Positions 30,966-64,000 of a stretch of 64,000 nucleotides of DNA are shown in pieces (position 1 is the stretch's first letter; the number at the start of each line of letters is the position of its first letter). The notes under the pieces are model-generated. The model saw only the letters and a list, made by a program, of their open reading frames with translations, searched no databases and had not been told where the DNA came from. Location of the stretch: contig OZ250165.1 of the NCBI GenBank assembly GCA_965238005.1, forward strand, positions 416,001 to 480,000, in the 5' to 3' direction. The position numbers and the translations under genes were made by a program. This DNA is from Longimicrobiales bacterium. GTDB taxonomy: Bacteria > Gemmatimonadota > Gemmatimonadetes > Longimicrobiales > Gaopeijiaceae.

Positions 30966-32288
30966 ATGAGATCCGAAACATTCAGTCGGCGCGCGTTTCT
31001 GGGTAGCCCTGCTGCCCTAGGGATAACAGCGTATGCTGCGAAAGCCAGTAGCTTCAATAACTTGGATGATATCTTTAATAACTTGGATGATATTACGACG
31101 AAGATTACAGAGATTGAAACAATACCTTTGAGCCTCCCTGTGAAGCCGTTTGAGGATGGAGTCGACAAAACCGGCGCAAAAGCCGCACCAAGTAAATATT
31201 ATGAAGGGGAACCATTAAAGAGAAAGAGAAAACGAAACGAAGAAGGGCACCTCTTAATGGATTACGTATTTGTGAAAATCCATACAGATAAAGGCATCAT
31301 TGGAATGGGTGAAGCCCCAACTGATCGCGTTGAGACTCTTGAGACAGTGAAATTCACTATTGATCGATACATGACCCCTAATTTGATTGGTCTAAATCCA
31401 TTTGATATTGAGCGCAATAACGAGATAGTGTCTTTACAGAAAAATGGAAGAGTGATCACACGCCACGCTGCTTCAGCGATCAATTACGCCTTATATGACA
31501 TCCTAGGGAAAACATTAAACGTACCACTATACACCCTAGTGGGTGGATTATATCGAAACAAGGTGCTTGCTTCGGTTGAGGTCCCAGGAGGTCCTCCGGA
31601 GGAAATGGCCGCCCATAGTATGGAGTATTACAAACAGGGGATAAGAGGGATCAAGGCGAAAGTTGGATCGAACCCTGATAGAGATGCGAAATCTTTGAAA
31701 GCCATTAGAGAAGCCCTTGGAGACGAGATCAGTCTTAGAGCTGATGCAAATCAAAAATACACGATACATGAGGCGATTCGACTATGCAGGTTAGCCAAGG
31801 AATACGATGTAGGTCTTGAACTCCTTGAGCAACCCATAGCGAGTACTGATTTGGAGGGTGCGAGAAGAATTGCCAGAACCGTGAATATACCCGTAGAGGC
31901 AGATGAAGCTGCAGATAGCCTATACCAAGTTTATCAGCTTCTCAAGAACGATGCCTGCGATATCATTAACACAAAATGCTCCAAATCTGGAGGGATCTCA
32001 GGGGTCAAGAAATGGGCAGCGGTAGCTGAAGCAGCGAGAAAATCCATTGTTATAGGAACAGAATATGGACTTGGTAACATAGTTGCTTCAAAGGTGCACT
32101 TAGGATGCGCAATCAAAAACGCGGATCCAGTCTTGGAATTCACCGAAATAGTGCTACATGACCTCCTACTAAAGAAACCACTAGAATTGAGGGACGGCTA
32201 CATCGAAGTTCCAACCGGACCGGGTATAGGCTGGGAGTTCGATAACAAGAAGATAGAGCAATACACGGTTCATGATTTCCCTGAATAA
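30966..32288 (+). CDS. Mandelate racemase/MLE family enzyme with Tat-like leader, low GC
   Basis: 'FSRRAFL', 'KAKVG', 'DANQ', 'EQP', 'DEA', 'PTGPGIG'; AT-rich codon use. Confidence 0.88.
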   Translation: MRSETFSRRAFLGSPAALGITAYAAKASSFNNLDDIFNNLDDITTKITEIETIPLSLPVKPFEDGVDKTGAKAAPSKYYEGEPLKRKRKRNEEGHLLMDYVFVKIHTDKGIIGMGEAPTDRVETLETVKFTIDRYMTPNLIGLNPFDIERNNEIVSLQKNGRVITRHAASAINYALYDILGKTLNVPLYTLVGGLYRNKVLASVEVPGGPPEEMAAHSMEYYKQGIRGIKAKVGSNPDRDAKSLKAIREALGDEISLRADANQKYTIHEAIRLCRLAKEYDVGLELLEQPIASTDLEGARRIARTVNIPVEADEAADSLYQVYQLLKNDACDIINTKCSKSGGISGVKKWAAVAEAARKSIVIGTEYGLGNIVASKVHLGCAIKNADPVLEFTEIVLHDLLLKKPLELRDGYIEVPTGPGIGWEFDNKKIEQYTVHDFPE

Positions 32289-50450: not shown

Positions 50451-52238
50451 TCAGTGACCCTTGTTCCGGATCGCTTCCTTGATGATGGCAACCGTGCGCT
50501 TCGCACGCGCGTCGGATATCTCGCGGGCCCACTCGAGCGACTGAGATAGGTCGGCGATCGAAACACCATTGATCACCGCCTGGTGCGTCTTCACCCGCTC
50601 TTGCCACCGAACGGAGTTGATGTCCGTGAGCATCATGTTGAGCGTGATGCCCGGGCTGTCGTGCAGCCCGTCCCGGGGCATCTCGTCCGTCGTGACGCCC
50701 AGTTCGCGAAGCACGTTGCGAGAGGCCTCGGGCGCCCTGTAGTACTCGCCGATGTGCGCAACGACCGGACTGCCGTGCCACTGCGCGTTTAGCTTCTCCG
50801 AAACCGCAGCCTGGCCACTCTGATTCCCACCACTGTCACCGATGAAGATGATGTTCTCGAAGCCGTGCATCTTCAGGCTGTGGGCCACGTCGATGAGCAC
50901 CGCCTCGAAGGTTTCCTGCCGAAGGCTGAGCGTTCCCGGGCTTCTCATGTGCCCGCTCTGGGGCTCGATGGAGCCCTCGGGCACCAGCTCCATGATCGGA
51001 GCGCAGAGGGCGTTCCCGAGCTTGCGCGCGATCGCGTCACAGTTGGCGCGCAGCACGTAGTTGTGCTTGCCCGTTACGAGCCATGGGCCGTTCGGCTCGA
51101 TGCCCCCGGTCGAAATGATGGCCGTCGTCTTGCCCGCGGCGAGCGCATCGCGGACGTCCATCCACGTCATCTCCTCAATCCACACCGTGCTGGCGGTGGG
51201 CAGAGGATTCGGCGTGTCGGAACAGTTGTACGCGTTCTGACGGCAGTCACCGCCGCCCATGGTGCGCGGGTCGGGCGCCGGCCGCTCTCCGCGCCCCGCG
51301 AACTGCCGCTGTGCGCGCGGGTTAGCAGGCAGTGTTCCCTTGTTCGCGATCGCTTCCCTGATCGCGGCAGCGGTGCTCCACGCCCGGAAGTCGACAATCT
51401 GCCTCGCCCACTCGAGCGACTGCACGCGGTCGGCGATCGAGACGCCGTTGATGCTCGCCAAGCCCGCCGCGCTGCGCTCGTCGTACCGCACCGACGACGG
51501 ATCGGTGATCATCATGTTGAGCGTGATGACGGGGTCGTCGTGCAGGTTGTCCCTCTCCCCGCCCACCAAGCCCTGCCCTTCCATGTAACGTCCGACGCTC
51601 CCGTAGTCATAATACTCCTGGACATGCGCCACGACCGGGCTGGCCTCCCACTCACCGTTCAACTTCTCGGCCACGGCTCTCTGACCACTCTGGTTCCCGC
51701 CGCTGTCACCGATGAAGAGGATGTTCTGGAAGCCGTGCATCTTCAGGCTACGCGCCACGTCTGTGAGCACCGCCTCGAAGGTCTCCTGGCGAAGGCTCAG
51801 GGTGCCCGGGCTGGTCATGTGCCCGCTCTGCGGCTCGATGGAGCCCTCCGGCACCAGCTTGATGATCGGCGTGCAGATCGCGTTTCCGAGCTCCCGCGCG
51901 ATCGCCTCACAGTTGGCGCGCAACACGTAGTTGTGCTTGCCCGTGACAAGCCAAGGACCGTTCGGGTCCATGCCCCCGGTCGAAATGATGGCCGTCGTCT
52001 TGCCGGCGGCGAGCGCGTCCCGGACATCCATCCACGTCATCTCTTCCAGCCACACTGTGCTCGCCGTGGGCAGCGGATTCGGCGTATCCACGCAGTTGTA
52101 CACGTTGTCTCGGCAGTCCCCGCCACCCATCGTGCGCGGATCGGGAGCTCGTTGCTGTCGCTGCCCAGCGGCCTGCGAGATAGGCGCCACGAGTGCAGTG
52201 GCAACGAGCACTGCACTGACGGTCAAGACTTTCTTCAT
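50451..52238 (-). CDS. Secreted protein with two tandem creatininase-family domains
   Basis: Two copies of 'EEMTWMDVRDA..GG(M/I)(D/E)PNGPWLVTGKHN..PGTLSL..GDSGGNQ..LHD'. Confidence 0.88.
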   Translation of the reverse strand: MKKVLTVSAVLVATALVAPISQAAGQRQQRAPDPRTMGGGDCRDNVYNCVDTPNPLPTASTVWLEEMTWMDVRDALAAGKTTAIISTGGMDPNGPWLVTGKHNYVLRANCEAIARELGNAICTPIIKLVPEGSIEPQSGHMTSPGTLSLRQETFEAVLTDVARSLKMHGFQNILFIGDSGGNQSGQRAVAEKLNGEWEASPVVAHVQEYYDYGSVGRYMEGQGLVGGERDNLHDDPVITLNMMITDPSSVRYDERSAAGLASINGVSIADRVQSLEWARQIVDFRAWSTAAAIREAIANKGTLPANPRAQRQFAGRGERPAPDPRTMGGGDCRQNAYNCSDTPNPLPTASTVWIEEMTWMDVRDALAAGKTTAIISTGGIEPNGPWLVTGKHNYVLRANCDAIARKLGNALCAPIMELVPEGSIEPQSGHMRSPGTLSLRQETFEAVLIDVAHSLKMHGFENIIFIGDSGGNQSGQAAVSEKLNAQWHGSPVVAHIGEYYRAPEASRNVLRELGVTTDEMPRDGLHDSPGITLNMMLTDINSVRWQERVKTHQAVINGVSIADLSQSLEWAREISDARAKRTVAIIKEAIRNKGH

Positions 52239-52378
52239 AACGTCACCTCCGAAAGGTCGGGCCTCTCGTCCGAGCGGGTCCAGCGGAGAACTTCGGATCC
52301 ACCACGCCTCAACGACTCACTCCGGGATCAGACCGAGGTCAACATCCGAGAGCGGGCCGGGAGGCGCAAGCCGTCCCG

Positions 52379-53632
52379 CTACCTCATCCCCTCATCCAGC
52401 AGCCGCTCGAGCTCCGCGTCCGACCGATCCTCAAGCCCGAGGGTCGGCTCCCACTTCGGGTAGGTGCCCCACGTCGCGGCCCACAGACGGCCACGGGTGT
52501 CCACGCCGAGCTGTACGGGATTCACGAGCTCCGGAAACATCTCTTCGGAGGCGAAGACGTTAGCACTGAGTCCGGGCTCCAGGCGCATCTGGGCGATCCC
52601 CTGCTCGGCGGTCAGAAAGTCGAGCGTGCCGAGCTTGCTGAAGCCGCCCTGTTCCTGCGGCTCGTCGAGGTTCGAGACAACCTCGACCGGTGCGGGGACG
52701 TTGGAGTCGTCCGGTTGAATCGATTCTCCGTTGGCCGCCGCCCAGATGACGCGGTCCCGGTTCGCCGTCAAGCGATCGAACTGGACTAGCTCCTGTTGCA
52801 GGACGTCGTAGTTCGTCTGGCCGTCAGTGAATGCGAGCGTAGACCGGGTGCCCCAGATGTCGTTGCCGTCCGTGGCCCGATAGCGGTTGAACCAGTGGCG
52901 GTTCTTGTCGAGCACGGCGGTTCGGATCGCGTCGATCGTACCCGGGTCGGTGGGGGGGGTGCGGCCCGTCACTTCGCGTACGATGACTTCGGCGATCTGC
53001 CTGTTGCCGACTTCGCCGAGATGTACGCCGTCGATGGTCAACGGCTCCTTGGCGGCCTCGAATAACCGCTGGGACGCGGTGTACAGGTCGACGTAACCGA
53101 CGCCCAGTTCGCCGGCGACCGATTCGGTGGCGTCGGCGTAGCGAGCGAGGCGCGCGTTGTTCTCGCTTCCGTCCGGGAAGTTGGGGTCGTTCAGGTTCTC
53201 GTGCGCGATGGGTGAGAAGAGCACGACGTCGGGCGGCCCGTGGCCCGAGTAGTCCTGGGCCCGCGTGTGGGTGATCCACTTCGTCAGCGCGACACCGTAG
53301 GCGGCCGGGTCCTCATCGTAGGACTCGTTGTAGCCGAACATCGCGAAGATCACGGTGGCCTGTGAGAGCCCGAGGTAGTCGTCCGGAGAAGGGAAGCCCT
53401 CACTTCGTGGACGATGATCGACGCGGTCGCCCGTGAAGCCATGATTGCGAATCACCAGCTCATGCTCCGGCAAGGCCGCGTGCATATACGCTTCCAGCCA
53501 GCCGTGGTGCTGCATGCGGTCGGCGAGCGCGTTGCCGACGAGGACGATGTGCGCTCCAGGCTCCAGCTCGACGGCCGGTGGCGTGCAAGCGTTTACGAGG
53601 AGTGGCAGGGTCAACAGAATCGGTCTCTTCAT
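52379..53632 (-). pseudogene. SGNH/GDSL plus PVC-type dehydrogenase-domain protein, 3'-truncated
   Basis: 'GNALADRMQHHGW', 'FGYNES', 'DGVHL', 'FASEEMFPELVNP..TYPKWEP', then unrelated tail. Confidence 0.75.
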
Positions 53633-54708
53633 CGATCGAGTGCTCCATCCAGACCCGCGGAGCCCGTTGAGGTCGGTCTGTCGGGTGACATGATGGGAGA
53701 GTCGAAACTCGCGAGGTCGGCCGGGCGGACGCCGCGTCGGTATCCGTCGAAGCTGAACCCAACTGGGTGGTACGGGCCGACCAGCGAGACGTCGTCGTCA
53801 CGCCGGATTTCGTCCTCCAGGCCCATGGTCCACAGGACGGCGTTGATCAGCATCCGTCGGAAGCCGTCGTTCAGGAAATCCTCCGAGGCGCCGTGGGTGG
53901 ACGTGAACACCCGCGCCGGGTTTCCGCTCGCGCCGGTATAGATGCGGGTCCAGGCCACCGGGAGCGTCTCTTTGTCCGGGTCTGGCGGTGCACCGAACTC
54001 CATTCCGTTCAGAACCAGACCAGCAGCGAGGACATCCGCGTCGTCCGGGGGATACGCCTGGTAACCGCCGGACTGCACGTGCATGTCGTCGACGCCCCGC
54101 AGGATCGGATGGTCGAGCCGTGCCTCGACCGGTATCACGCGTGAGCTCTGCTCGTGGTTCGTCCCGTAGTGTCCGACCCAGGTCTCGCCCAGGACCTGTT
54201 CCCCGAATCCCTGCAAATACTCCTCTCCGTCGTAGTTCCATGAGTACTTCACGAAGGGGCCGTCGTCGATCTGGAACGCATGGGTCGCGGTGCGCAGACC
54301 CATGACAGGACCACCCCGATCGAGGTAGTCGACGATGTGCTGCATCTCCGCGGCGGGGAAGTCCTGGAACCGAAGCGCCACCACCATGAGATCCGCCGTT
54401 TCCAGCGCCTCCAGTCCGGCGATGTTCGAGCTGCCCGGTTCGATGAATCCTTCGTCGTCCAGGGTGAAGAACACACTGGCCTTGAAACCGTATCGTTGCG
54501 CGAGAATCCGACCCATGGCCGGCAGGAGCTCTTCCGATCGGTATTCGTGGTCGCCGGAGATCAGTACCACGTGCTTGCCCGCTCCCGGGCCGGACGTGCC
54601 GTCGAACGTCACGCGGTAGGGATTGTCATCTGGGGGTCCAGGGATGCCCCCGGGGGCGCAGGCCAAGGCGGCCACGGCGCAAGCCGCGACCCAGAGTCGG
54701 ACGTCCAT
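53629..54708 (-). CDS. ThuA-like (class I GATase-like) lipoprotein
   Basis: 'ALAC' lipobox, 'SGDHEYRSEE', 'GLRTATHAF', 'RVFTSTHGA'. Confidence 0.82.
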   Translation of the reverse strand: MDVRLWVAACAVAALACAPGGIPGPPDDNPYRVTFDGTSGPGAGKHVVLISGDHEYRSEELLPAMGRILAQRYGFKASVFFTLDDEGFIEPGSSNIAGLEALETADLMVVALRFQDFPAAEMQHIVDYLDRGGPVMGLRTATHAFQIDDGPFVKYSWNYDGEEYLQGFGEQVLGETWVGHYGTNHEQSSRVIPVEARLDHPILRGVDDMHVQSGGYQAYPPDDADVLAAGLVLNGMEFGAPPDPDKETLPVAWTRIYTGASGNPARVFTSTHGASEDFLNDGFRRMLINAVLWTMGLEDEIRRDDDVSLVGPYHPVGFSFDGYRRGVRPADLASFDSPIMSPDRPTSTGSAGLDGALDR

Positions 54709-54883
54709 GGAGCCTCCGTTCCCGTGGTGGTCGAGGGTGTCGCGCCAGGGCGCCCCACCATTATGCCCGCCGGGAGGGATTTGTACCAGTTGCGGGGGTG
54801 ATACCTGTCGGAGCCGTGACGGAGCACGGTGCCGTCATCCCCGTGCGCTCGTTCTCGCCCGTGCGCTCGTTCTCGAAAAGGGC

Positions 54884-54955
54884 GTCTGACCGAGACCGGA
54901 CTCGGCGTCGGTACACCACGCTACATGAGTCCCGAGCAGGCGACGGGTGATCAGC
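54884..54955 (+). pseudogene. Ser/Thr kinase activation-loop fragment
   Basis: 'RLTETGLGVGTPRYMSPEQATGD'. Confidence 0.75.
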
Positions 54956-55193
54956 ACGTCTTCTGGTTCACCGATGATCGGTTTTTGGACACCAACCTGA
55001 GGTCAGTGACTCGTGGTCCCCGAGGTGGCGTCCTCCACGTGTAGGGCGACGACGGCGAGCACGACGTCGTCCCTCCGCGTCATTCCGAACTGGTTTGTAT
55101 CGAAGCGAAAAAACAACTCAAAAAACAACGACCCCGTAGCCCGCATAGGCCCCGTGGTCGTCCAAGTGCTTGCAGCACAGCGTACTACGACAG

Positions 55194-55239
55194 TGAGCCG
55201 GGTGGGTCTCGAACCCACGACCTACGAATTAAAAGTTCG
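55194..55239 (-). tRNA. 3' half of tRNA-Lys(TTT), att-site remnant
   Basis: Minus strand CGAA-ctTTTaa-TTCG, AGGTC, GTGGG-TTCGAGA-CCCAC, CCGGCTC-A; flanked by AAAAAACAAC x2 (55108-55129). Confidence 0.8.
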
Positions 55240-55443
55240 ATCGCAGTATATACCCAGAATGCTCGCGAGGTAGTCTAAGTTGCTGTGAGTTCGGCGCTCA
55301 AGTAGGGGTCGGAATCACGGCAGCGTGACCGAACAACCTAGATGGATCGCGCGATTTGCCGCCTTCGCGATTCGGGGATGTCGTGATCTGCCGGGGTCAA
55401 TCGACAGGAGAACCGCCAGGTGCCGTTGCGGCAGGGTGTAAGA

Positions 55444-55486
55444 ATATCTAACATTGTTGTCGGGCATCTGCCGCTATGTTAGATAT
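55444..55486. promoter_or_regulatory. 11-bp perfect inverted repeat, candidate XRE operator
   Basis: ATATCTAACAT-N21-ATGTTAGATAT, 32 bp upstream of the XRE ATG. Confidence 0.65.
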
Positions 55487-55518
55487 CGCCCCCCCCGAGA
55501 AGGACGGGTTGACCAGGT

Positions 55519-56829
55519 ATGGCTGAGAAACTGAAGGATATCAGTAGCATTCTCCGGCAAGCGCGGACGTCACGTGGTCTCACCCAGGCTGACATCGCAC
55601 CTCAGCTTGGTGTATCGCGAGCCACCATCGCCCATATCGAGACAGGACGGCGATCCGTGAAGGCTGAAGATCTGCGCCGGCTAGCTGCCTTCTATGGCTG
55701 TAGCCTCAGCGAGCTCCTTCCCCCGGCTACCGACGACCAGGAAGTGGATGGCCTTGGCGAGCTGTTCCGCGCCCATCCTGACCTCTCGGAAGATCAGGGT
55801 CCGAGTTCCTTCGCCGGTGTGTGCGCGACCGCGAGAGCACTCACCGATCTGGAAGCAAGACTTGAGATCGACGCCACTGTACACTCGCTTCCTTCCTACC
55901 GGGTTGAGCACGGAAATATGCCGTGGCAAGCGGCACGGGAAGGATATCGCATTGCGGAGGATGAGCGGCGGCGCCTAGCACTTGGAGAGGGGCCCATCCG
56001 TTTCGTTGACGAACTGCTCATGACGTCGGGCGTTCGTTCGGCCAACGCGACTCTGCCGACAGGAATCCTCTCGATTTCGATCGGTGAACCGGACCACGGC
56101 CTTCTTGTTGTGGTCGAGAAGAACCTTGGTCTCGAACACCGCCGCTTCAGATACGCACACGGACTTGCCCACTTCCTGTTCGATACCGAAGCCCCGTGGC
56201 GCGTGTGCAAATCTGGCGGAGCGCCTGAGTTTCCGGAGGTGAGGGCCGACGCTTTCGCCAGCGCCCTTCTGATTCCCCAGTATGGTTTGCGTCGATACGT
56301 CGAGACCCTCGGCAAAGAGACACTGGGACGCGCTGGGCCCACAGTGCTGTCCGTGTTTTCAGAGGGCGACGGTCGCGACAAGACGGGCGAGAGCCGTCGC
56401 GTGGATGGTCGCCAGCGCAGGGGTCGTCATCCGATCACGTTGTCGGACGTCCTACGGACGGCTCACTACTACGGCACGAGCCCCAGCGTGGCTGCGCATC
56501 GTTTGAGAAACCTCCGACTTTTGACAGACCGTGAACTCGATCAACTAAAAACGATGTTGCGCAGTGAAAAGCATACGCCGATCGAAGGGGAACTTGCGCT
56601 GCAGGCCCATGATATGGACTCCCTCTGTTCTCGTCTGGCGGCGCTCGCGGCCAGTGCACTCCATCGGGGGAATATCGATACCCCCAGATTCAACGAACTA
56701 GCGGATCTCGCGGGAGTTCGCGTGGCAGACCGAAAGGGTCTCTTAGCCACTGCGGCCACGCCTCCACAACAAGAGCATGGGAGTTCTAGCCAAACTCCGC
56801 GCCGCGCTACGTCGGCGACTTCCCCATGA
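55519..56829 (+). CDS. XRE HTH fused to ImmA/IrrE (M78)-like domain
   Basis: 'LTQADIA..VSRATIAHIETG'; 'RRFRYAHGLAH' (HExxH with E->G); 'EVRADAFASALLIP'. Confidence 0.88.
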   Translation: MAEKLKDISSILRQARTSRGLTQADIAPQLGVSRATIAHIETGRRSVKAEDLRRLAAFYGCSLSELLPPATDDQEVDGLGELFRAHPDLSEDQGPSSFAGVCATARALTDLEARLEIDATVHSLPSYRVEHGNMPWQAAREGYRIAEDERRRLALGEGPIRFVDELLMTSGVRSANATLPTGILSISIGEPDHGLLVVVEKNLGLEHRRFRYAHGLAHFLFDTEAPWRVCKSGGAPEFPEVRADAFASALLIPQYGLRRYVETLGKETLGRAGPTVLSVFSEGDGRDKTGESRRVDGRQRRGRHPITLSDVLRTAHYYGTSPSVAAHRLRNLRLLTDRELDQLKTMLRSEKHTPIEGELALQAHDMDSLCSRLAALAASALHRGNIDTPRFNELADLAGVRVADRKGLLATAATPPQQEHGSSSQTPRRATSATSP

Positions 56830-57707
56830 ACCTCGACGCGCGGCTTTCCGTCATGACCAGCGCTCCGCTCCACGACACATCGACGGACTCTCAGGAGATG
56901 CTGGCGTTGCTCGGACAGCTTCATATGGATTCGCTACCGCTTCTCGACCAAGTAAGACCTGGGTTGGACCACAGCCAGGCCGTCGGTGTGAATGCCAAGG
57001 GCGACGAGCAGAAGCCCTTTGACATCGCTGCTGACGAATGGATTCGACAGTGGCTTTCAGAACACTTCGAAAGCGGTGTCGTGGAGTCTGAGGAGCAGAC
57101 GGGTGCGTTCGAGTTCGGGCGCGGCGAACAAGGCTACCGATTCATCGTCGACCCGGTCGATGGTTCCGACAACTTCGCGCGTGGCCTGCCGCTGTCCGCC
57201 ATCTCGCTGGCCATGCTTCCACGACAGACATCGCTCTCCGCGGACGGAGTCATCTTCGCGTCGGTTGGTGCCACATCGGGCCCTGGAGCCGTCGTCGCGG
57301 CGCGCGGAAACGGAGCTTACTCATCAGACGGCCGACGCTTGCACACGTCGGAGACGCGCCGTCTTCGCGACGCGTTTATCTCCTGCGAACTGAACCATTG
57401 GGCGCCGGACGCCTCTCTCGCCGACCTGATGCGGACCTGCGCCGGCATACGCGTCTACGGCTGTGCTTCACGTGCTCTGTGCCTGGTGGCAGACGGAGCT
57501 CTGGATGCCCATATCGACGTCAGGAGCCGATTGACGCCGGAGAGTTTTCTCGCGGCCTCGTTAATCGTCACCGAGGCCGATGGCCACATCTGTCGTCTCG
57601 ACGGCGGGGCGCTCGGTCCATTTGAATCGCTGCAGGATCGCACGACCCTCGTCGCCGCATCGACCAAAGAGCTTACGGAGGAGATCATCAATGCCCTCGC
57701 TAGATAG
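56826..57707 (+). CDS. Inositol monophosphatase / FIG-family phosphatase
   Basis: 'ESEE', 'IVDPVDGSDNF', 'GCAS..LCLVADG'; ATGA overlap with the XRE gene. Confidence 0.88.
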   Translation: MNLDARLSVMTSAPLHDTSTDSQEMLALLGQLHMDSLPLLDQVRPGLDHSQAVGVNAKGDEQKPFDIAADEWIRQWLSEHFESGVVESEEQTGAFEFGRGEQGYRFIVDPVDGSDNFARGLPLSAISLAMLPRQTSLSADGVIFASVGATSGPGAVVAARGNGAYSSDGRRLHTSETRRLRDAFISCELNHWAPDASLADLMRTCAGIRVYGCASRALCLVADGALDAHIDVRSRLTPESFLAASLIVTEADGHICRLDGGALGPFESLQDRTTLVAASTKELTEEIINALAR

Positions 57708-59226
57708 AGTTCCACGCCGGGAAACGGTCGCTCCGCTGGCCGTGATTCTCGCGGCCGGCAATGGGAGCCGCTTGCGGAGCGATCGTTCGGCCGTGCCCAA
57801 ACCGCTCGTCCACTTGCGAGGTCTGTCGATGGCCGAGAGATCGATAGTACAACTGCTCACGGCGGGTGTGGAGCGATTTGTCGTCGTTCTCGGGTATGAC
57901 GCAGCGCTTGTCCAGCACGAATTCGAGCGGGTTGCAAGACGACGTCGCTGCCATATCACTTTTGTTGAGGCTGAGAACTGGGAAAGAGGCAACGGCTGTT
58001 CCGCGGTCGCCGCCGCTCCGTTGGTCGGCGACAGCCCGTTTCTCTTGGCCATGGTCGATCACCTGCTACCCCCGGAAATGATCCGGGATGTGCTGGCTAA
58101 TCCACCGGCACAGGACGAAATCGCGCTCGCCGTCGATCATGATACAGAAAACGTGTTCGACCTTCCCGATCTCACCAAGGTCGAGGTGTCGGGAGGGTGC
58201 ATCGCAGCGATTGGAAAAGACCTCGCGATTTGGAATGCGGGCGACACGGGCCTGTTTTACTGTTCGTCAAGGCTGTTCGAGGGGCTGGCGAGAGCGCACG
58301 AGCAGGGCAAGTTTTCGTTGACGGACGGGATCCGAGAATGCGTTGCACAGGGTGGGGTTCGAGCGATCGATGTGACCCGAGCGCGTTGGCTCGATGTGGA
58401 TACGCCGGAAGCATCTCAGGAGGCGGTGCACCGGATCGACGCGGCCATGGGGAAAGGTGGAGAAGATGGCTTCATCTCCCAATACATAAACCGTCCGCTC
58501 TCCCGTCGCCTTTCGGTGGCTCTATCGAGAACGCCCCTGACACCCAATCACATCACACTCCTATCCTTCTTCATAGGGCTGCTTGGCGCCGTCGGTTTGG
58601 CCACCACGGACCCGTGGTTCTGGATCGCCGGAGGGATACTCATTCAGATCGCCTCTATCGTGGATGGGTGCGACGGTGAGATCGCACGCATCAAGTTGCT
58701 TCAAAGTCCACAAGGTGCCTGGCTTGATACGGTGTTGGATCGGTATTCTGACCTGGCAGTCGGGCTCGCCGTGACATTCGCCGCGTCACAGCTGTACGAC
58801 GCGGCCTGGGTTTGGCCAGCCGGCTTCGCTGCAACGGCCAGCTTCCTCATGGCGAGCTATGTCACCAAGGAATTCCAGATTCGGTTTCAACGTCCGTATC
58901 CCAATAATCTCGTAAACAAGCTCAAGCGTCGTGATCTTCGAATTCTTGCCATCGCGGTCGGGGCTGCGCTGGGACACCCGCTTGTGGCGCTGCTGGCCAT
59001 CGGGTCACTCACTCACCTTGCCGTGTTCCAAATACTGGTGTCTGGCTGGCATACCACTCTCGCGCTCCATCCATCACACGCGCCGATAGCACTCACGAGC
59101 CGAGGACGATCGTCTGAACGCATGCCGCTGGGCATCAGCGTTGGCGCTACGGCTGGCCATACGAGCGGAGCTGCAGCCGTGGACGGAGTACTTCGAGGGA
59201 AGCTTCAGCATCAAGTACGCTCTTGA
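57691..59226 (+). CDS. Bifunctional NTP-transferase / CDP-alcohol phosphotransferase (IPCT/DIPPS-like)
   Basis: 'ILAAGNGSRL..PKPL', 'GNGCS', 'MVDH', 'DTGLF', 'WLDVDTPE', then 'TPNHIT', 'DGCDGEIAR..GAWLDTVLDRYSD'; GGAGG RBS. Confidence 0.9.
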   Translation: MPSLDRVPRRETVAPLAVILAAGNGSRLRSDRSAVPKPLVHLRGLSMAERSIVQLLTAGVERFVVVLGYDAALVQHEFERVARRRRCHITFVEAENWERGNGCSAVAAAPLVGDSPFLLAMVDHLLPPEMIRDVLANPPAQDEIALAVDHDTENVFDLPDLTKVEVSGGCIAAIGKDLAIWNAGDTGLFYCSSRLFEGLARAHEQGKFSLTDGIRECVAQGGVRAIDVTRARWLDVDTPEASQEAVHRIDAAMGKGGEDGFISQYINRPLSRRLSVALSRTPLTPNHITLLSFFIGLLGAVGLATTDPWFWIAGGILIQIASIVDGCDGEIARIKLLQSPQGAWLDTVLDRYSDLAVGLAVTFAASQLYDAAWVWPAGFAATASFLMASYVTKEFQIRFQRPYPNNLVNKLKRRDLRILAIAVGAALGHPLVALLAIGSLTHLAVFQILVSGWHTTLALHPSHAPIALTSRGRSSERMPLGISVGATAGHTSGAAAVDGVLRGKLQHQVRS

Positions 59227-59285
59227 GCCGCTCGTCCCGGAGCTGACCTACAACGATCTGGTCATTGTGGACGGGCTCGTAGCGA
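59185..59285 (+). pseudogene. DUF2779-like protein fragment
   Basis: 'YFEGSFSIKYALEPLVPELTYNDLVIVDGLVA'. Confidence 0.5.
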
Positions 59286-59384
59286 CCCGCCCCGCTGATC
59301 ACGGTGGAGAGCGGCCAGCCAGGATCGACGGCACCGGCGACCTCCTGCTCATGCAGCGTGAGGTCATGCGGTGCTCAAGACCGA

Positions 59385-59640
59385 TTAGCCTCTCAGCAGC
59401 GGGTCCAGCCTCGCAGCCGACTCTTCCTGCATGCCGGGCAGGACGTGCGAATACGTGTCCATCGTAAGCGTGATCGGCGCGTGCCCGAGCATCTCTTGTA
59501 CGACCTTCGGGTGCTCGCCGTTAACGAGACGGAGCGTCGCGGCCGTGTGTCGAAGATCGTAAAGCCTCATGTCCGGCAGCCCGGCGGCCTCAAGGATCGG
59601 CTTGAAGTACCGCTTCTTTAGATTGTTGGACTCGAGCGGT
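59385..59640 (-). pseudogene. Tyrosine integrase C-terminus
   Basis: 'YDLRHTAATL..PKVVQEMLGH..TMDTYSHV'. Confidence 0.88.
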
Positions 59641-59694
59641 TCCACGCGATGCAGCACCCACTGCGCCGAGCGATGTTCTCCTCCGGGGGCCCGA

Positions 59695-59961
59695 AGACGC
59701 AACTACGAACTCCTGCTCGAGGCGGGGTTCAGCGCTCCGGAGGTCGTCCAGATCATGAGCGCCAACGGCGCCAAGGTGCTTGGGATCGACGGCGATGTGG
59801 GCACGGTCGAGGCCGGCAAGGTCGCCGACCTGGTCGTGATCGAGGGAGACCTCGAGGCGGTCCAGAACCTGCACGGGACGAAGATCGTCTTCCGGCATGG
59901 CACCGGCTGGGACTCGGCCAAGCTGATCGAATCGATCAGGGGGATCGTCGGCATCCGCTGA
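59695..59961 (+). pseudogene. Amidohydrolase C-terminal fragment
   Basis: 'NYELLLEAGF..NGAKVLG..GTVEAGKVADLVVIEGD'. Confidence 0.75.
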
Positions 59962-61165: not shown

Positions 61166-61640
61166 CTACGCCTTCGTCGCCTCGAACAACTTCACCATAT
61201 CGAGGTAGACGTTGAACTCTCCGGTCAGCCGGAATCCCGCCGCCCGGACGTTGTCGGCGGTTCGACGGTTGATGTCGGGTCCCAGCATCCTGGCCACCGG
61301 GTTCATTACGTCCATCACAAAGCCGAGGTAGAAGTTGGAGGGCCGCACATGCTCGAACATGAGCAGGTCTCCATCATCCTTCAGGACGCGGCGCACCTCC
61401 CTTAATCCCTTGATCGGATCGGGGACGGAGCAGAAGGTGCAGGAGGTGACGACGGTATCGAAATGAGCGTCGGGAAAATCCAGGCTGGTGACGTCCGCTT
61501 CCAGCAACATGATCGGGGCGGGGGACTCGCCTACCTTCTTCTCGGCGTGCTCGAGCATCACCGGAGAGAAGTCGATGGCGGTCACTTCGACCTCGGCGGG
61601 AAAGAACTTGAAGTCCGCACCGGTTCCGGCGGCCACCAGC
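61166..61640 (-). pseudogene. Class I SAM methyltransferase, 5'-truncated
   Basis: 'AAGTG', 'IDFSPVML', 'FDTVV..TFCSVPDP', 'FEHV'. Confidence 0.8.
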
Positions 61641-62042
61641 AATGGCACCGGCGCCGCCCGGATAGGCGGCCGCTGGAATCCGCTGGGCGTTCCTATGGTC
61701 TACGCGTCACTCGCGTATGAGGGGGCCTTGCTGGAGCAGCTCGTCCACGCCGGCATTGGCCGACCTCCCACCGAGCGCGTGGCGTCGCGAATCGTCCTTC
61801 CTGACGACTGCGAGGTGCCCACCCTGGACGTCGACGAGATTCCGGACTGGAGGGACGAGATGCGATCCCGGGAGATTGGGGAGGCATGGGTAGAGTCTGA
61901 GCGATCGCTCGCACTCATCGTGCCTTCCTTCGTGGCCCGGCCCTGGGGCTGGAATGTGGTCATAAACCCGAGGCATGCGGAGCTCGGCCGCGTTGTCTTG
62001 GCGGAGGTGGTCGACGTCCTCTGGGATCCTAGCGTGGTCTGA
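61641..62042 (+). pseudogene. RES-domain protein, 5'-truncated
   Basis: 'GTGAARIGGRWN..YAS..ALLE', 'VPS', 'NVVINPRH'. Confidence 0.8.
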
Positions 62043-62049
62043 GGGCTAG

Positions 62050-63651
62050 GAGTCTGCGCCGCAGAAGCACAGCTGACTGAGCCGAATGGTCATCGAGCCG
62101 TCCGCGGCGAGGCGGATCCGGGTGATTGGGAGGTTGAGGACTTGTGTCTGCGACGGATCGGGAGAGCGGAATGGATGCGTTGGGGGGGGCAAGAGAGCTA
62201 CGAGAGCCCTCGCGCCGGCAGATGCGGGTGAACCCTCGTGCAGTCATGCCGCCTGAAGGGTGTGCAGCCGCTTCACATTGAGTGCCAGGCACACGAGGGT
62301 CCACTCGGCCCGGACCTTCTCGAGGCCCCGGAAGCTGAATCGTCGAAAGCCCATCACTTCCTTGATCCAGCCGATGGGCGCCTCGGCCTGCGACTTTCGC
62401 CGTGCGTAGCGTCTGCGGCCATCTTCGCTCGCCAGCTTCTCCGCCATGCGGACTTTCGCCGGATATTCCTCCTTGTCAACCGTGGGGGCGGCCTTGCCCT
62501 CCCGGGCCAGCGCCACATACCCGTCGATGTCTCGCTCTTCCAGTTCCTCGAGATCCCGCTCGTTGCAATAGCCCGTGTCCGCCAGCACCTGCGCCGGCGT
62601 CTCGCCGTACGCTTGCGCCACCGCGTCGACCATGGGCACCAGCTGGCCCTGGTCGCTCGCGTTGTCCGTCACCTCGGCCCCGACCACCAGCTGGTTCTCC
62701 CCCTCCACGACCGTCTGTGCGTTGTAGCACTGCTGGAACCCCTCCGAACTCGTCTTCATGATCCGGCTCTCAGGGTCCGTGAAGTTGCTCTGCGCCGCCT
62801 CGTCCGGCTCTCCGTACTCCCGCTTGTAGGGCCTGCCGCCCTTCGGGTTGCGCGTCTGCCCCGGCTTGCGGCCCCGTGCGTCGTCCGCCGCTCTCTGCTC
62901 GGCTTCCAGGCGCGCCTTCGCCTCCCGGATCGCCGCCAGCCGGTCCTCGCGCCGCTTGAGCTCCTCCGGCACCTCGTCTCCGCATGCTTCCTCGCCGTAG
63001 CGCTCGTCTTCCGCTTCGTCCACCGCCTCGGCCCTCTCCAACAGCCCCCGGATCTCCGCCTCCAGCCGAGGCTCCCCGGTCACCATCCGGCCGTAGCTCA
63101 TCGCCTTGCGCTTGTTCGCGTTCGCCCGAACCTTCGTCCCGTCCACCGACACCCTGCCAAGCCCCGCCAGCCCCAAGGCCCGCGCGAGCATCACCACCTC
63201 CACAAACACCGCCCGGAAATCCCCGAGATGGCGCTTGCGGAACTCGCACAGCGTCCGGTGCTTCGGGAAGTTCTCCGCCGCCAGCATCCGAAACGCGACA
63301 TCCTCCTCCAGCTTCCTCGCCATCTTCCGCGACGAGAAGGTGCCCGTCGCATACGCGTAGATCAGCACCTTGACCATCATCCGAGGGTCGTACGGCGAGT
63401 TGCGCCGCCCGTCCCCCCGGTACCGCCCGTAGAACGCGCTCAGCTCCACCGCGTCCACCAGGTCGCTCACATGGTGCGCCAAATGACCCTCCGACACCCA
63501 CTCCCGAAGATCCGGAGGCAGCAACAACATCTGCTCCGGATCGTACGGTCGAAATGTCGTTCCCATTCACCCCCCTCGGTGATCCGCAAGCCTTCCCAAT
63601 GCCTTCGCTACCACCAAAGATAGCCGCCGCAGGGTTCTGCGGCGCAGACTC
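62050..63651 (-). mobile_element. IS1182-family insertion sequence
   Basis: 17-bp perfect IR GAGTCTGCGCCGCAGAA; CTAG at both flanks (62046-62049, 63652-63655). Confidence 0.92.
62244..63566 (-). CDS. IS1182 transposase
   Basis: 'YDPRMMVKVLIYAY..SSRK', 'VDGTKVRAN', 'NFTDPESRIM', 'ADTGY'. Confidence 0.93.
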   Translation of the reverse strand: MGTTFRPYDPEQMLLLPPDLREWVSEGHLAHHVSDLVDAVELSAFYGRYRGDGRRNSPYDPRMMVKVLIYAYATGTFSSRKMARKLEEDVAFRMLAAENFPKHRTLCEFRKRHLGDFRAVFVEVVMLARALGLAGLGRVSVDGTKVRANANKRKAMSYGRMVTGEPRLEAEIRGLLERAEAVDEAEDERYGEEACGDEVPEELKRREDRLAAIREAKARLEAEQRAADDARGRKPGQTRNPKGGRPYKREYGEPDEAAQSNFTDPESRIMKTSSEGFQQCYNAQTVVEGENQLVVGAEVTDNASDQGQLVPMVDAVAQAYGETPAQVLADTGYCNERDLEELEERDIDGYVALAREGKAAPTVDKEEYPAKVRMAEKLASEDGRRRYARRKSQAEAPIGWIKEVMGFRRFSFRGLEKVRAEWTLVCLALNVKRLHTLQAA

Positions 63652-64000
63652 CTAGCGGGCCGTGTGACCGCATGCCCCTCTTGAGCCCGAGCGCCCGGCC
63701 GCTCCTTCCGTCGGCTCGGTTCCCGCATCCAGGATCTCGAGCTGTGCCTCGTAGGTGTAGAGCCGGTCACGGGCTCGGCCTGTCACCTCCCGGGCGATGC
63801 CCAGGGACTCCAAGCGTTCGATGGCACTGTTCACCGTAGGCCAAGTGAGCCCTAGTGCCTCCGCAGCGTGGGGAATGGAGATCACTACGAACCGGCGCAA
63901 TAGGTCGTAGACCCGCAACGCAGAGCCTGCGGCGCGACCGAGCCGTGCCACATGCTCCTGGTCCTCCTCGAACAGCCTCCGGAGGCTCAGGGTGGTCTCG
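63652..64000 (-). CDS. Fic-family protein C-terminus (runs off the window)
   Basis: 'LGLTWPTVNSAIERLESLGIAREVTGRARDRLY.Y' wHTH tail typical of Fic proteins; Fic motif not in the window. Confidence 0.7.
   Translation of the reverse strand, partial: ETTLSLRRLFEEDQEHVARLGRAAGSALRVYDLLRRFVVISIPHAAEALGLTWPTVNSAIERLESLGIAREVTGRARDRLYTYEAQLEILDAGTEPTEGAAGRSGSRGACGHTAR

Follow-up and report, generated by a model that had tools for sequence, protein, structure and literature searches.

A 64,000-nt stretch of the single-contig, 4.84-Mb genome of a Longimicrobiales bacterium (the window, G000:C1:416001-480000) raises the question of why a regulator that joins an XRE DNA-binding domain to an ImmA/IrrE-like domain should head an operon of inositol-phosphate enzymes. 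Coordinates are positions in the window unless prefixed C1. XRE-ImmA/IrrE fusions are typical of prophage, integrative and conjugative element (ICE) and defence regulation. Di-myo-inositol phosphate (DIP) is a compatible solute mostly of (hyper)thermophiles, made by four enzyme activities: inositol-1-phosphate synthase (MIPS), IPCT, DIPPS and an IMPase-type phosphatase of DIP-phosphate (DIPP). We found that the three genes of this locus, referred to below as the cassette, are a real, conserved and mobile operon. Judged by homology and gene linkage, it is a mobile, self-regulated DIP cassette with a probability of about 0.65.

Gene order and conservation of the cassette

The cassette consists of genes for the regulator, an IMPase-family phosphatase (IMPase) and a fused IPCT/DIPPS enzyme (Table 1). 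The original prediction had read three overlapping genes here, with an ATGA junction and a 17-bp overlap at 57691; both are present, and Pfam confirmed the three families. The ATGA is a 4-bp overlap of regulator and IMPase genes, and the 17-bp overlap of the IMPase and IPCT/DIPPS genes holds with a start at 57691, where GGAGGAG lies 7 nt before the ATG. Independent public assemblies bridge the gene junctions (records over 56697-56889, 56738-57079, 57581-57855 and 57532-57855). Of the junctions on which the original prediction depended, both of those between genes thus held up, but that between a duplicated block and the cassette (55220 to 55425) is bridged by none of the listed public contigs.

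Gene neighbourhoods were compared in 20 genome-contig loci anchored on the enzyme and 65 metagenome loci anchored on the regulator. The two sets are not independent, since part of the metagenome records are also contigs of metagenome-assembled genomes (MAGs; e.g. L076 and L023). Regulator, IMPase and enzyme followed in this order in 15 of the 16 informative enzyme-anchored loci, with the IMPase of L031 reduced to a 26-aa remnant. Otherwise, L028 and L034 had no upstream sequence, L035 and L040 held enzyme fragments and L033 had IMPase and enzyme without the regulator. In the regulator-anchored set, 56 of 65 loci were at least 47% identical to the window regulator; seven of these had less than 300 bp downstream, leaving 49 informative loci. 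An IMPase or MIPS gene lay directly downstream of the regulator in 48 of them, the exception being L119, with an NTP-transferase gene divergently upstream. The neighbourhood search thus bore out the expectation that the three-gene order recurs and that the XRE gene is linked to IMPase/IPCT in homologous loci. A sample of the phylum gave the same picture: a close regulator homolog occurred in 6 of 401 genomes, each time with the enzymes beside it (decayed in L046). Dozens of independent contigs show this order with these overlaps, and public assemblies bridge the junctions, so a chance arrangement is excluded.

All three genes had dN/dS values of 0.17-0.43 in five pairwise comparisons. The carriers are marine and sediment MAGs labelled Gemmatimonadota, Acidobacteriota, Deltaproteobacteria, Bacteroidetes and UBP10. 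A search of 5.8 billion proteins returned 135 matches to the regulator, and several of these come from contigs equal in length to those with enzyme matches, a hint that the contigs are shared.

The enzymes and the proposed pathway

The enzymes had been predicted to be an IPCT/DIPPS and an IMPase; database comparisons agree and place the IMPase with those of archaeal type. Residues 17-424 of the fused enzyme match the A. fulgidus IPCT/DIPPS (PDB 4mnd) at E 1.5e-45, with ~30% identity as estimated from the alignment, and among NCBIfam models the one for IPCT/DIPPS, NF041135, matches best (247.5 bits, positions 3-414 of 419). The N-terminal nucleotidyltransferase domain has the glycine-rich loop LAAGNGSRL at residues 19-27 and matches both Pfam NTP_transf_3 (57.8 bits) and the IPCT structure PDB 2xme (6.9e-17). 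In the membrane domain the CDP-alcohol phosphotransferase signature DxxDGxxAR...GxxxDxxxD is complete, reading DGCDGEIAR-(8)-GAWLDTVLD (Pfam PF01066, 43.5 bits). Read by eye, the sequence has six hydrophobic, putatively transmembrane (TM) segments, apparently with no extra C-terminal helices. An RDLR (RxxR) motif aligns with KRDER of 4mnd. According to Clarke et al., a six-helix core and paired arginines (RxxR) are tied to soluble inositol-phosphate acceptors, and neither AF2299 nor DIPP synthase processes lipids (PMC4634129). Conservation is lost in the C-terminal tail beyond about residue 480, with homologs aligning no further than about residue 460-482.

The IMPase matches Pfam PF00459 at 89.4 bits and has the motif DPVDGSDNF. 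It is nearest to archaeal FBPase/IMPases, with PDB 1vdw (PH1897) matched at 1.6e-15, and scores 123.7 bits against NCBIfam NF009321, below the cut-off of 264. On homology, it is presumed to be the DIPP phosphatase of the cassette.

The original prediction noted that the window lacks an inositol-1-phosphate synthase and reasoned that its substrate is either supplied by the host or a different one. In agreement with this, the genome encodes MIPS at C1:178588-179808, 237 kb from the cassette, and other copies of the cassette carry their own. In L032, a 1.6-Mb contig labelled Acidobacteriota, and in L037 (UBP10), the MIPS gene stands between those for regulator and IMPase. A MIPS gene or remnant has this position in 16 of the 48 linked metagenome loci, three of which (L100, L101 and L107) hold only fragments. 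We infer that the three-gene cassette derives from a four-gene form through loss of MIPS. Cassette-borne MIPS, IMPase and IPCT/DIPPS together would complete the DIP pathway as outlined above.

The steps of this pathway are assigned from homology and gene linkage. MIPS of the host, or of the cassette in other copies, would supply L-myo-inositol-1-phosphate. The N-terminal domain of the fused enzyme would use this and CTP to make CDP-inositol, from which the six-helix membrane domain would move phospho-inositol onto a second inositol-1-phosphate to give DIP-phosphate. Finally, the IMPase-family enzyme would strip the terminal phosphate.

The regulator belongs to a probable pseudo-peptidase clade

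The regulator has an XRE helix-turn-helix (HTH) at residues 12-66, an M78 (ImmA/IrrE-like) domain and a conserved C-terminal region. Peptidase_M78 matches residues 196-265 at 32.5 bits against a cut-off of 22. XRE and M78 are fused in one chain and there is no second XRE gene within the cassette. The HExxH motif of M78 peptidases reads HGLAH in this protein (H214, G215, H218), with E240 kept. In all 18 orthologs compared (52-100% identity) H-G-x-A-H is invariant and E240 and an RA(D/N)AFA..L.P motif are kept, and seven further cassette-type metagenome loci also have Gly for Glu. By contrast, all ten aligned paralogs from other Gemmatimonadota (26-34% identity) have H-E-Y-x-H in the same columns. 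These ten include L050, from a genome flagged unpublished; no result depends on L050 alone.

Remote relatives follow the same division. The regulators of L130 and L132, which are 30-37% identical and stand before MIPS, have AHGLAH, and those of L128 and L129, before NTP-transferase and methyltransferase genes, have AHGYAH or AHGYGH. In L135 and L137, with small partners of unknown kind and a type ISP restriction gene nearby, the motif is AHEYAH. The change from Glu to Gly thus tracks the switch from defence-type partners to inositol/NTP-transferase operons in every copy examined.

The AlphaFold2 model has a mean pLDDT of 65.8 and is confident only at residues 1-250 and 368-412 (HTH, M78 core and last helices). 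Its best Foldseek matches are CapP (7t5t, E 2.6e-4) and IrrE (3dti); they are weak, with TM-scores of 0.2-0.3, and were used only as agreeing with Pfam. A search of the ESM Atlas with residues 250-430 found only M78-containing clusters.

We conclude that the regulator is a member of a pseudo-peptidase clade dedicated to inositol or CDP-alcohol operons and is no active ImmA. Two parts of the original prediction are thus not supported. A phage-responsive ImmA-type regulator is at odds with HGLAH in place of HExxH in 18 of 18 orthologs, and because the motif lacks the catalytic Glu, proteolytic anti-repression is unlikely. Nor does this look like a generic mobile-element regulator, since inositol or NTP-transferase genes are the sole companions of the clade whereas the HExxH paralogs hold the defence-like settings. 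The first gene would instead be the cassette's own repressor, carrying an M78 domain without the catalytic glutamate but with three metal ligands kept. With this combination of losses and retentions the domain is most likely a sensor and not a protease; it would sense a stress signal or a pathway metabolite rather than cut a protein.

We tentatively extend this idea, on balance with doubt, to HGxxH XRE-M78 proteins as a whole. They could be an unrecognised class of one-component regulators derived from the repressor-protease modules of mobile elements and defence islands, whose dead site senses a phosphorylated pathway metabolite or a physical stress and which have made solute operons (for DIP in this case, and other NTP-transferase operons in remote members) portable and self-regulating, allowing DIP to spread among sediment and deep-sea bacteria of several phyla as a protectant. 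Were this true, DIP, long seen as a marker of hot marine life, would be spreading by gene transfer as a pressure or stress protectant.

Two groups of relatives deserve mention in their own right. The ten HExxH paralogs are each followed by an unannotated open reading frame (ORF) of 163-187 aa. This arrangement, an HExxH XRE-M78 gene with a 163-187-aa ORF lacking a Pfam family, was seen in the Gemmatimonadota loci L048, L050-L052, L054, L057-L059, L065, L066, L068 and L070, often with defence-type genes around it; the two genes may form a toxin-antitoxin-like pair or a defence regulator pair. Neighbours across about two dozen paralog loci (L047-L070) include genes for a Cas3-like helicase, SNase, PD-(D/E)XK nucleases, AbiJ, SMODS, ThiF and Zeta-toxin-like proteins. 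In the second group (L128:112-3316 and L129:4501-7789) a remote HGxxH XRE-M78 gene precedes a stand-alone NTP transferase and a methyltransferase dependent on S-adenosylmethionine; the L128 regulator appears split into two ORFs. These operons may represent a different solute or head-group pathway under a like regulator.

A putative operator upstream of the regulator

A perfect inverted repeat (Table 1) begins 75 nt and ends 32 nt upstream of the regulator ATG. It is present at 9 or more of 11 positions in 11 of 16 cassette copies, and in L036 both arms have changed in a compensatory manner (C>G and G>C). None of 300 shuffled sequences reached 11/11 and three reached 10/11. The palindrome appears to overlap -35-like and -10-like hexamers. 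A terminator scan gave one terminator-like site, inside the enzyme gene, which is no more than in shuffled sequence. The repressor would bind the palindrome over its own promoter, probably as a dimer. A repressor so placed would leave the whole unit autoregulated and able to work wherever it landed.

The cassette moves laterally and lies in a tRNA-Lys island remnant

The original prediction placed the cassette between a tRNA-Lys remnant and an integrase C-terminus. Both are there: a 46-nt tRNA-Lys(UUU) 3' fragment on the left and a Phage_integrase fragment on the right (Table 1).

Table 1. Coordinates of the cassette, its putative operator and its flanking features in the window.
Feature	Position	Strand	Description
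Putative operator	55444-55486	+	Perfect 11-bp inverted repeat ATATCTAACAT-N21-ATGTTAGATAT
Regulator, XRE-M78	55519-56829	+	436 aa; ORF with Pfam HTH_3/HTH_31 and Peptidase_M78
IMPase	56826-57707	+	293 aa; ORF with Pfam Inositol_P (PF00459)
Fused IPCT/DIPPS	57691-59226 (ORF also open from 57580)	+	511 aa; Pfam NTP_transf_3 and CDP-OH_P_transf
Segmental duplicate block	52442-55244		2803 bp, 99.93% identical to C1:3669988-3672789 beside the real tRNA-Lys locus
att-like remnant	55194-55294	-	3' 46 nt of tRNA-Lys(UUU) (55194-55239) and ~55 nt of flank repeated in the genome
Tyrosine recombinase C-terminal fragment	59385-59702	-	105 aa; Pfam PF00589 positions 94-169 of 172
Amidohydrolase C-terminal fragment	59569-59961	+	Amidohydro_1 positions 278-322 of 345; abuts the integrase fragment

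The proteins of the cassette are 95-99% identical in G011, G416 and G409, in which host MIPS is 90, 73 and 76% identical, respectively. As the cassette is so much more alike than MIPS and its flanks differ, we conclude that it moves laterally. In G011, a member of another genus, DNA identity is 98% over 55348-59182 (3.8 kb), whereas the remaining stretches that match within that 20 kb are 64-72% identical. Searches of two genomes from the same genus as the host (95% and 90% complete) did not find the enzyme. In G034 cassette (83-89%) and MIPS (83%) are similarly conserved, and vertical descent is therefore possible there.

Depending on the copy, the left boundary of the shared DNA falls at 55293-55425 and the right one at 59182-59363, and public contigs have loose ends at these boundaries too. 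Beyond them the flanks are unrelated and include IS481-type and Mutator transposases, a full integrase, TraG/TraD-like proteins and a relaxase. Identical DDE transposase genes lie on both sides of the cassette in L032. The integrase stretch of the window is not common to other copies, as DNA homology to L021 and L022 stops at 59363; we take the fragment to be a remnant of the integrating vehicle. No convincing terminal repeats flank the cassette (23 direct-repeat families and 42 inverted pairs were considered). A contig joint of 55409 to 59337 (29-nt side, low depth) was below the reliability guide and was not used.

The tRNA-Lys fragment at 55194-55239 is 95.7% identical over 46 nt to C1:3680702-3680747, part of the tRNA-Lys(UUU) gene at C1:3680702-3680774. 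Further copies of the remnant (80-100%) lie at C1 3672727, 3662363, 4280781, 4319377 and 4332372. The fragment is the right end of the duplicate block, which also holds a ThuA-like gene, a scrap of a kinase gene and a GDSL/DUF7133 gene truncated to 417 aa (835 aa in the other copy). The original of this block is the flank of a tRNA-Lys island array 3.2 Mb away. In G011, fragments of tRNA-Lys form an array around the cassette, which keeps the orientation it has in the window and lies ~13 kb from the intact tRNA-Lys gene. ARAGORN found no tRNA gene in the window; in place of an intact integrase, an intact tRNA target and flanking att repeats, the window holds one tRNA fragment and an integrase fragment. 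The site is thus the remnant of a tRNA-targeting integrative island. A probable history is that the cassette first came in at tRNA-Lys and that a later event moved or copied it.

Taken together, the pattern of lateral identity, the mobile-gene flanks and the tRNA-Lys arrays support the original view of a mobile, island-associated unit. Its proposed link to phage found no counterpart, nor did we find one to plasmids. Six peptide patterns, whose reach is close relatives only, gave 11 pattern matches in IMG/VR, none of them confirmed. A tblastn search of PLSDB returned 33 records, all below 60% identity and none covering 80% of the query.

Evidence against a DIP cassette and alternative explanations

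Several observations weigh against reading the locus as a DIP cassette. The fused enzyme's score is below the NF041135 equivalog cut-off of 580, in a model built for Thermococcales. For its membrane domain the score against AF2299 is equal or better (120.8 bits over 189 residues); the crystal structure of AF2299 held bound CDP-glycerol (PMC4634129), and donor or acceptor specificity could therefore differ. Related genomes have fused paralogs (~40% identical) next to MMPL and polysaccharide-flippase genes, so the fused architecture alone does not specify DIP. In the IMPase, PESFLAAS replaces the metal-binding D-x-x-A-(A/G)-G motif and is invariant in a 9-sequence alignment; the chemistry of this enzyme may therefore be altered. 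On the side of expression, a sigma-70 consensus scan for promoters gave 0 sites. Contigs from RNA libraries (two runs of one study) cover 55425/55490 to ~59363 but may contain DNA, and they stem from relatives with other flanks. The proteome has an IVYWREL (Ile, Val, Tyr, Trp, Arg, Glu and Leu) fraction of 0.413, which by the Zeldovich formula corresponds to ~52 C, and a charged-versus-polar (CvP) bias of 7.6. High G+C inflates the index, and it gives no ground for calling the host a non-thermophile.

The chief alternative is a cassette making some other product derived from CDP-inositol or a CDP-alcohol. This could be glycero-phospho-inositol or another mixed phosphodiester, or else a phospholipid or sphingolipid containing inositol, like those of the putative alternative pathway of Bacteroides/Prevotella. 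The membrane domain is as similar to AF2299 as to the DIPP synthase domain, the fused paralogs of relatives have envelope contexts, and the remote HGxxH regulators of L128 and L129 precede NTP-transferase and methyltransferase genes rather than IMPase/DIPPS. Heaver et al. propose NTP-transferase and CDP-alcohol transferase genes for inositol lipids (PMC9246714). However, the partner here is an IMPase and not the HAD hydrolase of the lipid cluster, and in the loci examined the cassette is not accompanied by any glycerol-phosphate or lipid-handling gene. The six putative TM segments, without extra C-terminal helices, would fit a soluble acceptor (PMC4634129). The combination of MIPS, IMPase and IPCT/DIPPS is moreover the set of the DIP pathway outlined at the start, and also the one annotated by Kerou et al. 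We thus regard another product as unlikely, and DIP as the preferred reading. The cassette could also make nothing in this genome, as a silent or decaying passenger among island fragments. Its surroundings are fragmentary (truncated integrase, amidohydrolase, a 2.8-kb duplicate with a truncated gene and a 45-copy insertion sequence, IS) and decayed cassettes occur in other genomes (L031/L046, L035, L040 and L012). Set against this, the three frames are intact, coupling overlaps and operator are perfect, other copies are 96-98% identical at dN/dS of 0.2-0.3, and the host carries a MIPS to supply the substrate, all of which makes decay improbable.

The least compatible with the data is a phage- or DNA-damage-responsive defence or stress unit, induced by proteolytic inactivation of the XRE domain as in ImmR/ImmA, DdrO/IrrE and CapH/CapP. 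In its favour, the M78 domain is structurally nearest to CapP and IrrE, and the nearest paralogs have genes for type ISP restriction, SMODS, AbiJ, nucleases and a Cas3-like helicase beside them. It is hard to square with the loss of the catalytic Glu in the 18 orthologs and the seven further loci, with the lack of any relative in viral contigs by the patterns used and with a cargo that is a solute biosynthesis pathway, and we consider it highly improbable.

Relation to known systems

In the published literature searched we found no description of the bacterial cassette or its regulator. The cassette resembles the DIP genes of (hyper)thermophiles (MIPS, A. fulgidus AF0263 IPCT/DIPPS (4mnd) and an IMPase-type DIPP phosphatase) in its enzyme set and fused two-domain architecture. 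It differs from them in being carried by marine and sediment MAGs that are not known thermophiles, in being headed by a dedicated XRE/pseudo-M78 regulator and in being packaged as a mobile unit. Its island-like packaging has a published parallel in hadal and deep-sediment Thaumarchaeota from cold deep-sea settings, in which a small island gained by horizontal transfer unites regulator genes with an additional IMPase and a fused IPCT/DIPPS; the hosts in that case are archaeal (PMC7265257; PMC8397731). For the sediment Thaumarchaeota, Kerou et al. list IPS, ipct/dipps and an 'IMP DIPP phosphatase'; by their account DIP genes were previously known only in organisms growing above 55 C, and these archaea are the first non-thermophiles (PMC8397731). 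A preprint describes DIP potential in trench JS1 MAGs (PMC13648724). A near-identical, self-regulated cassette in MAGs of several bacterial phyla would extend DIP beyond thermophiles, and suggests that its synthesis is a transferable trait in marine and sediment habitats. As a unit of three or four genes, the cassette is small enough for a direct laboratory test.

With the ImmR/ImmA, DdrO/IrrE and CapH/CapP pairs the regulator shares XRE and M78 parts, a fold nearest to CapP and IrrE, the third metal ligand and RA(D/N)AFA..LL.P. In contrast to these pairs it is fused, has HGxxH and is probably no protease. They control a mobile element, DNA repair or immunity, whereas the cassette regulator would control a metabolic operon. 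The Glu-to-Gly switch thus offers a natural experiment in repurposing a protease domain. The putative alternative inositol-lipid cluster of Bacteroides vulgatus and Prevotella also combines an NTP transferase presumed to make CDP-inositol with a CDP-alcohol transferase, usually beside MIPS (PMC9246714). There, however, the two are separate proteins accompanied by a HAD hydrolase and the proposed product is a lipid, in contrast to the fused enzyme, IMPase and lack of a linked lipid gene here.

Other features of the window and related genomes

Host MIPS adjoins a gene for a 210-aa CDP-alcohol phosphatidyltransferase (L071:8534-10511 = C1:178534-180511), a pair which suggests native synthesis of phosphatidylinositol-phosphate (inositol lipid). 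In Longimicrobiales relatives (L006-L009, L016, L018 and L020), paralogous fused NTP-transferase/CDP-alcohol-transferase genes, 36-43% identical to the cassette enzyme, are flanked by genes for an MMPL transporter and a polysaccharide flippase and probably belong to an envelope pathway; in G010 and G016 a second CDP-alcohol transferase is near the fused paralog.

To the right of the cassette, a RES-domain toxin gene (61488-62042, +; 79.5 bits) and a truncated class I methyltransferase gene (61166-61648, -) overlap, the latter with its 5' part; next to the toxin gene no ORF for a cognate Xre-type antitoxin was noted. The 1.61-kb IS at 62046-63656 encodes a 440-aa DDE_Tnp_1/DUF772 transposase (-) and has 45 copies genome-wide at 99.7-100% identity, which indicates a recent IS expansion. 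Just left of the duplicate block is a 54-nt element (52318-52371) with many copies (83-100%) in the relatives G001, G002 and G011; it looks like a repetitive extragenic palindromic (REP) or miniature inverted-repeat transposable element (MITE) repeat. Further left, an enolase-superfamily (MR/MLE) gene at 30966-32288 lies in a 1-kb stretch of 44% G+C in a genome of ~63% G+C and is probably foreign. The 595-aa protein encoded at 50451-52238 consists of two tandem creatininase-family halves, with DNA 85% identical between 50755-51275 and 51625-52145.

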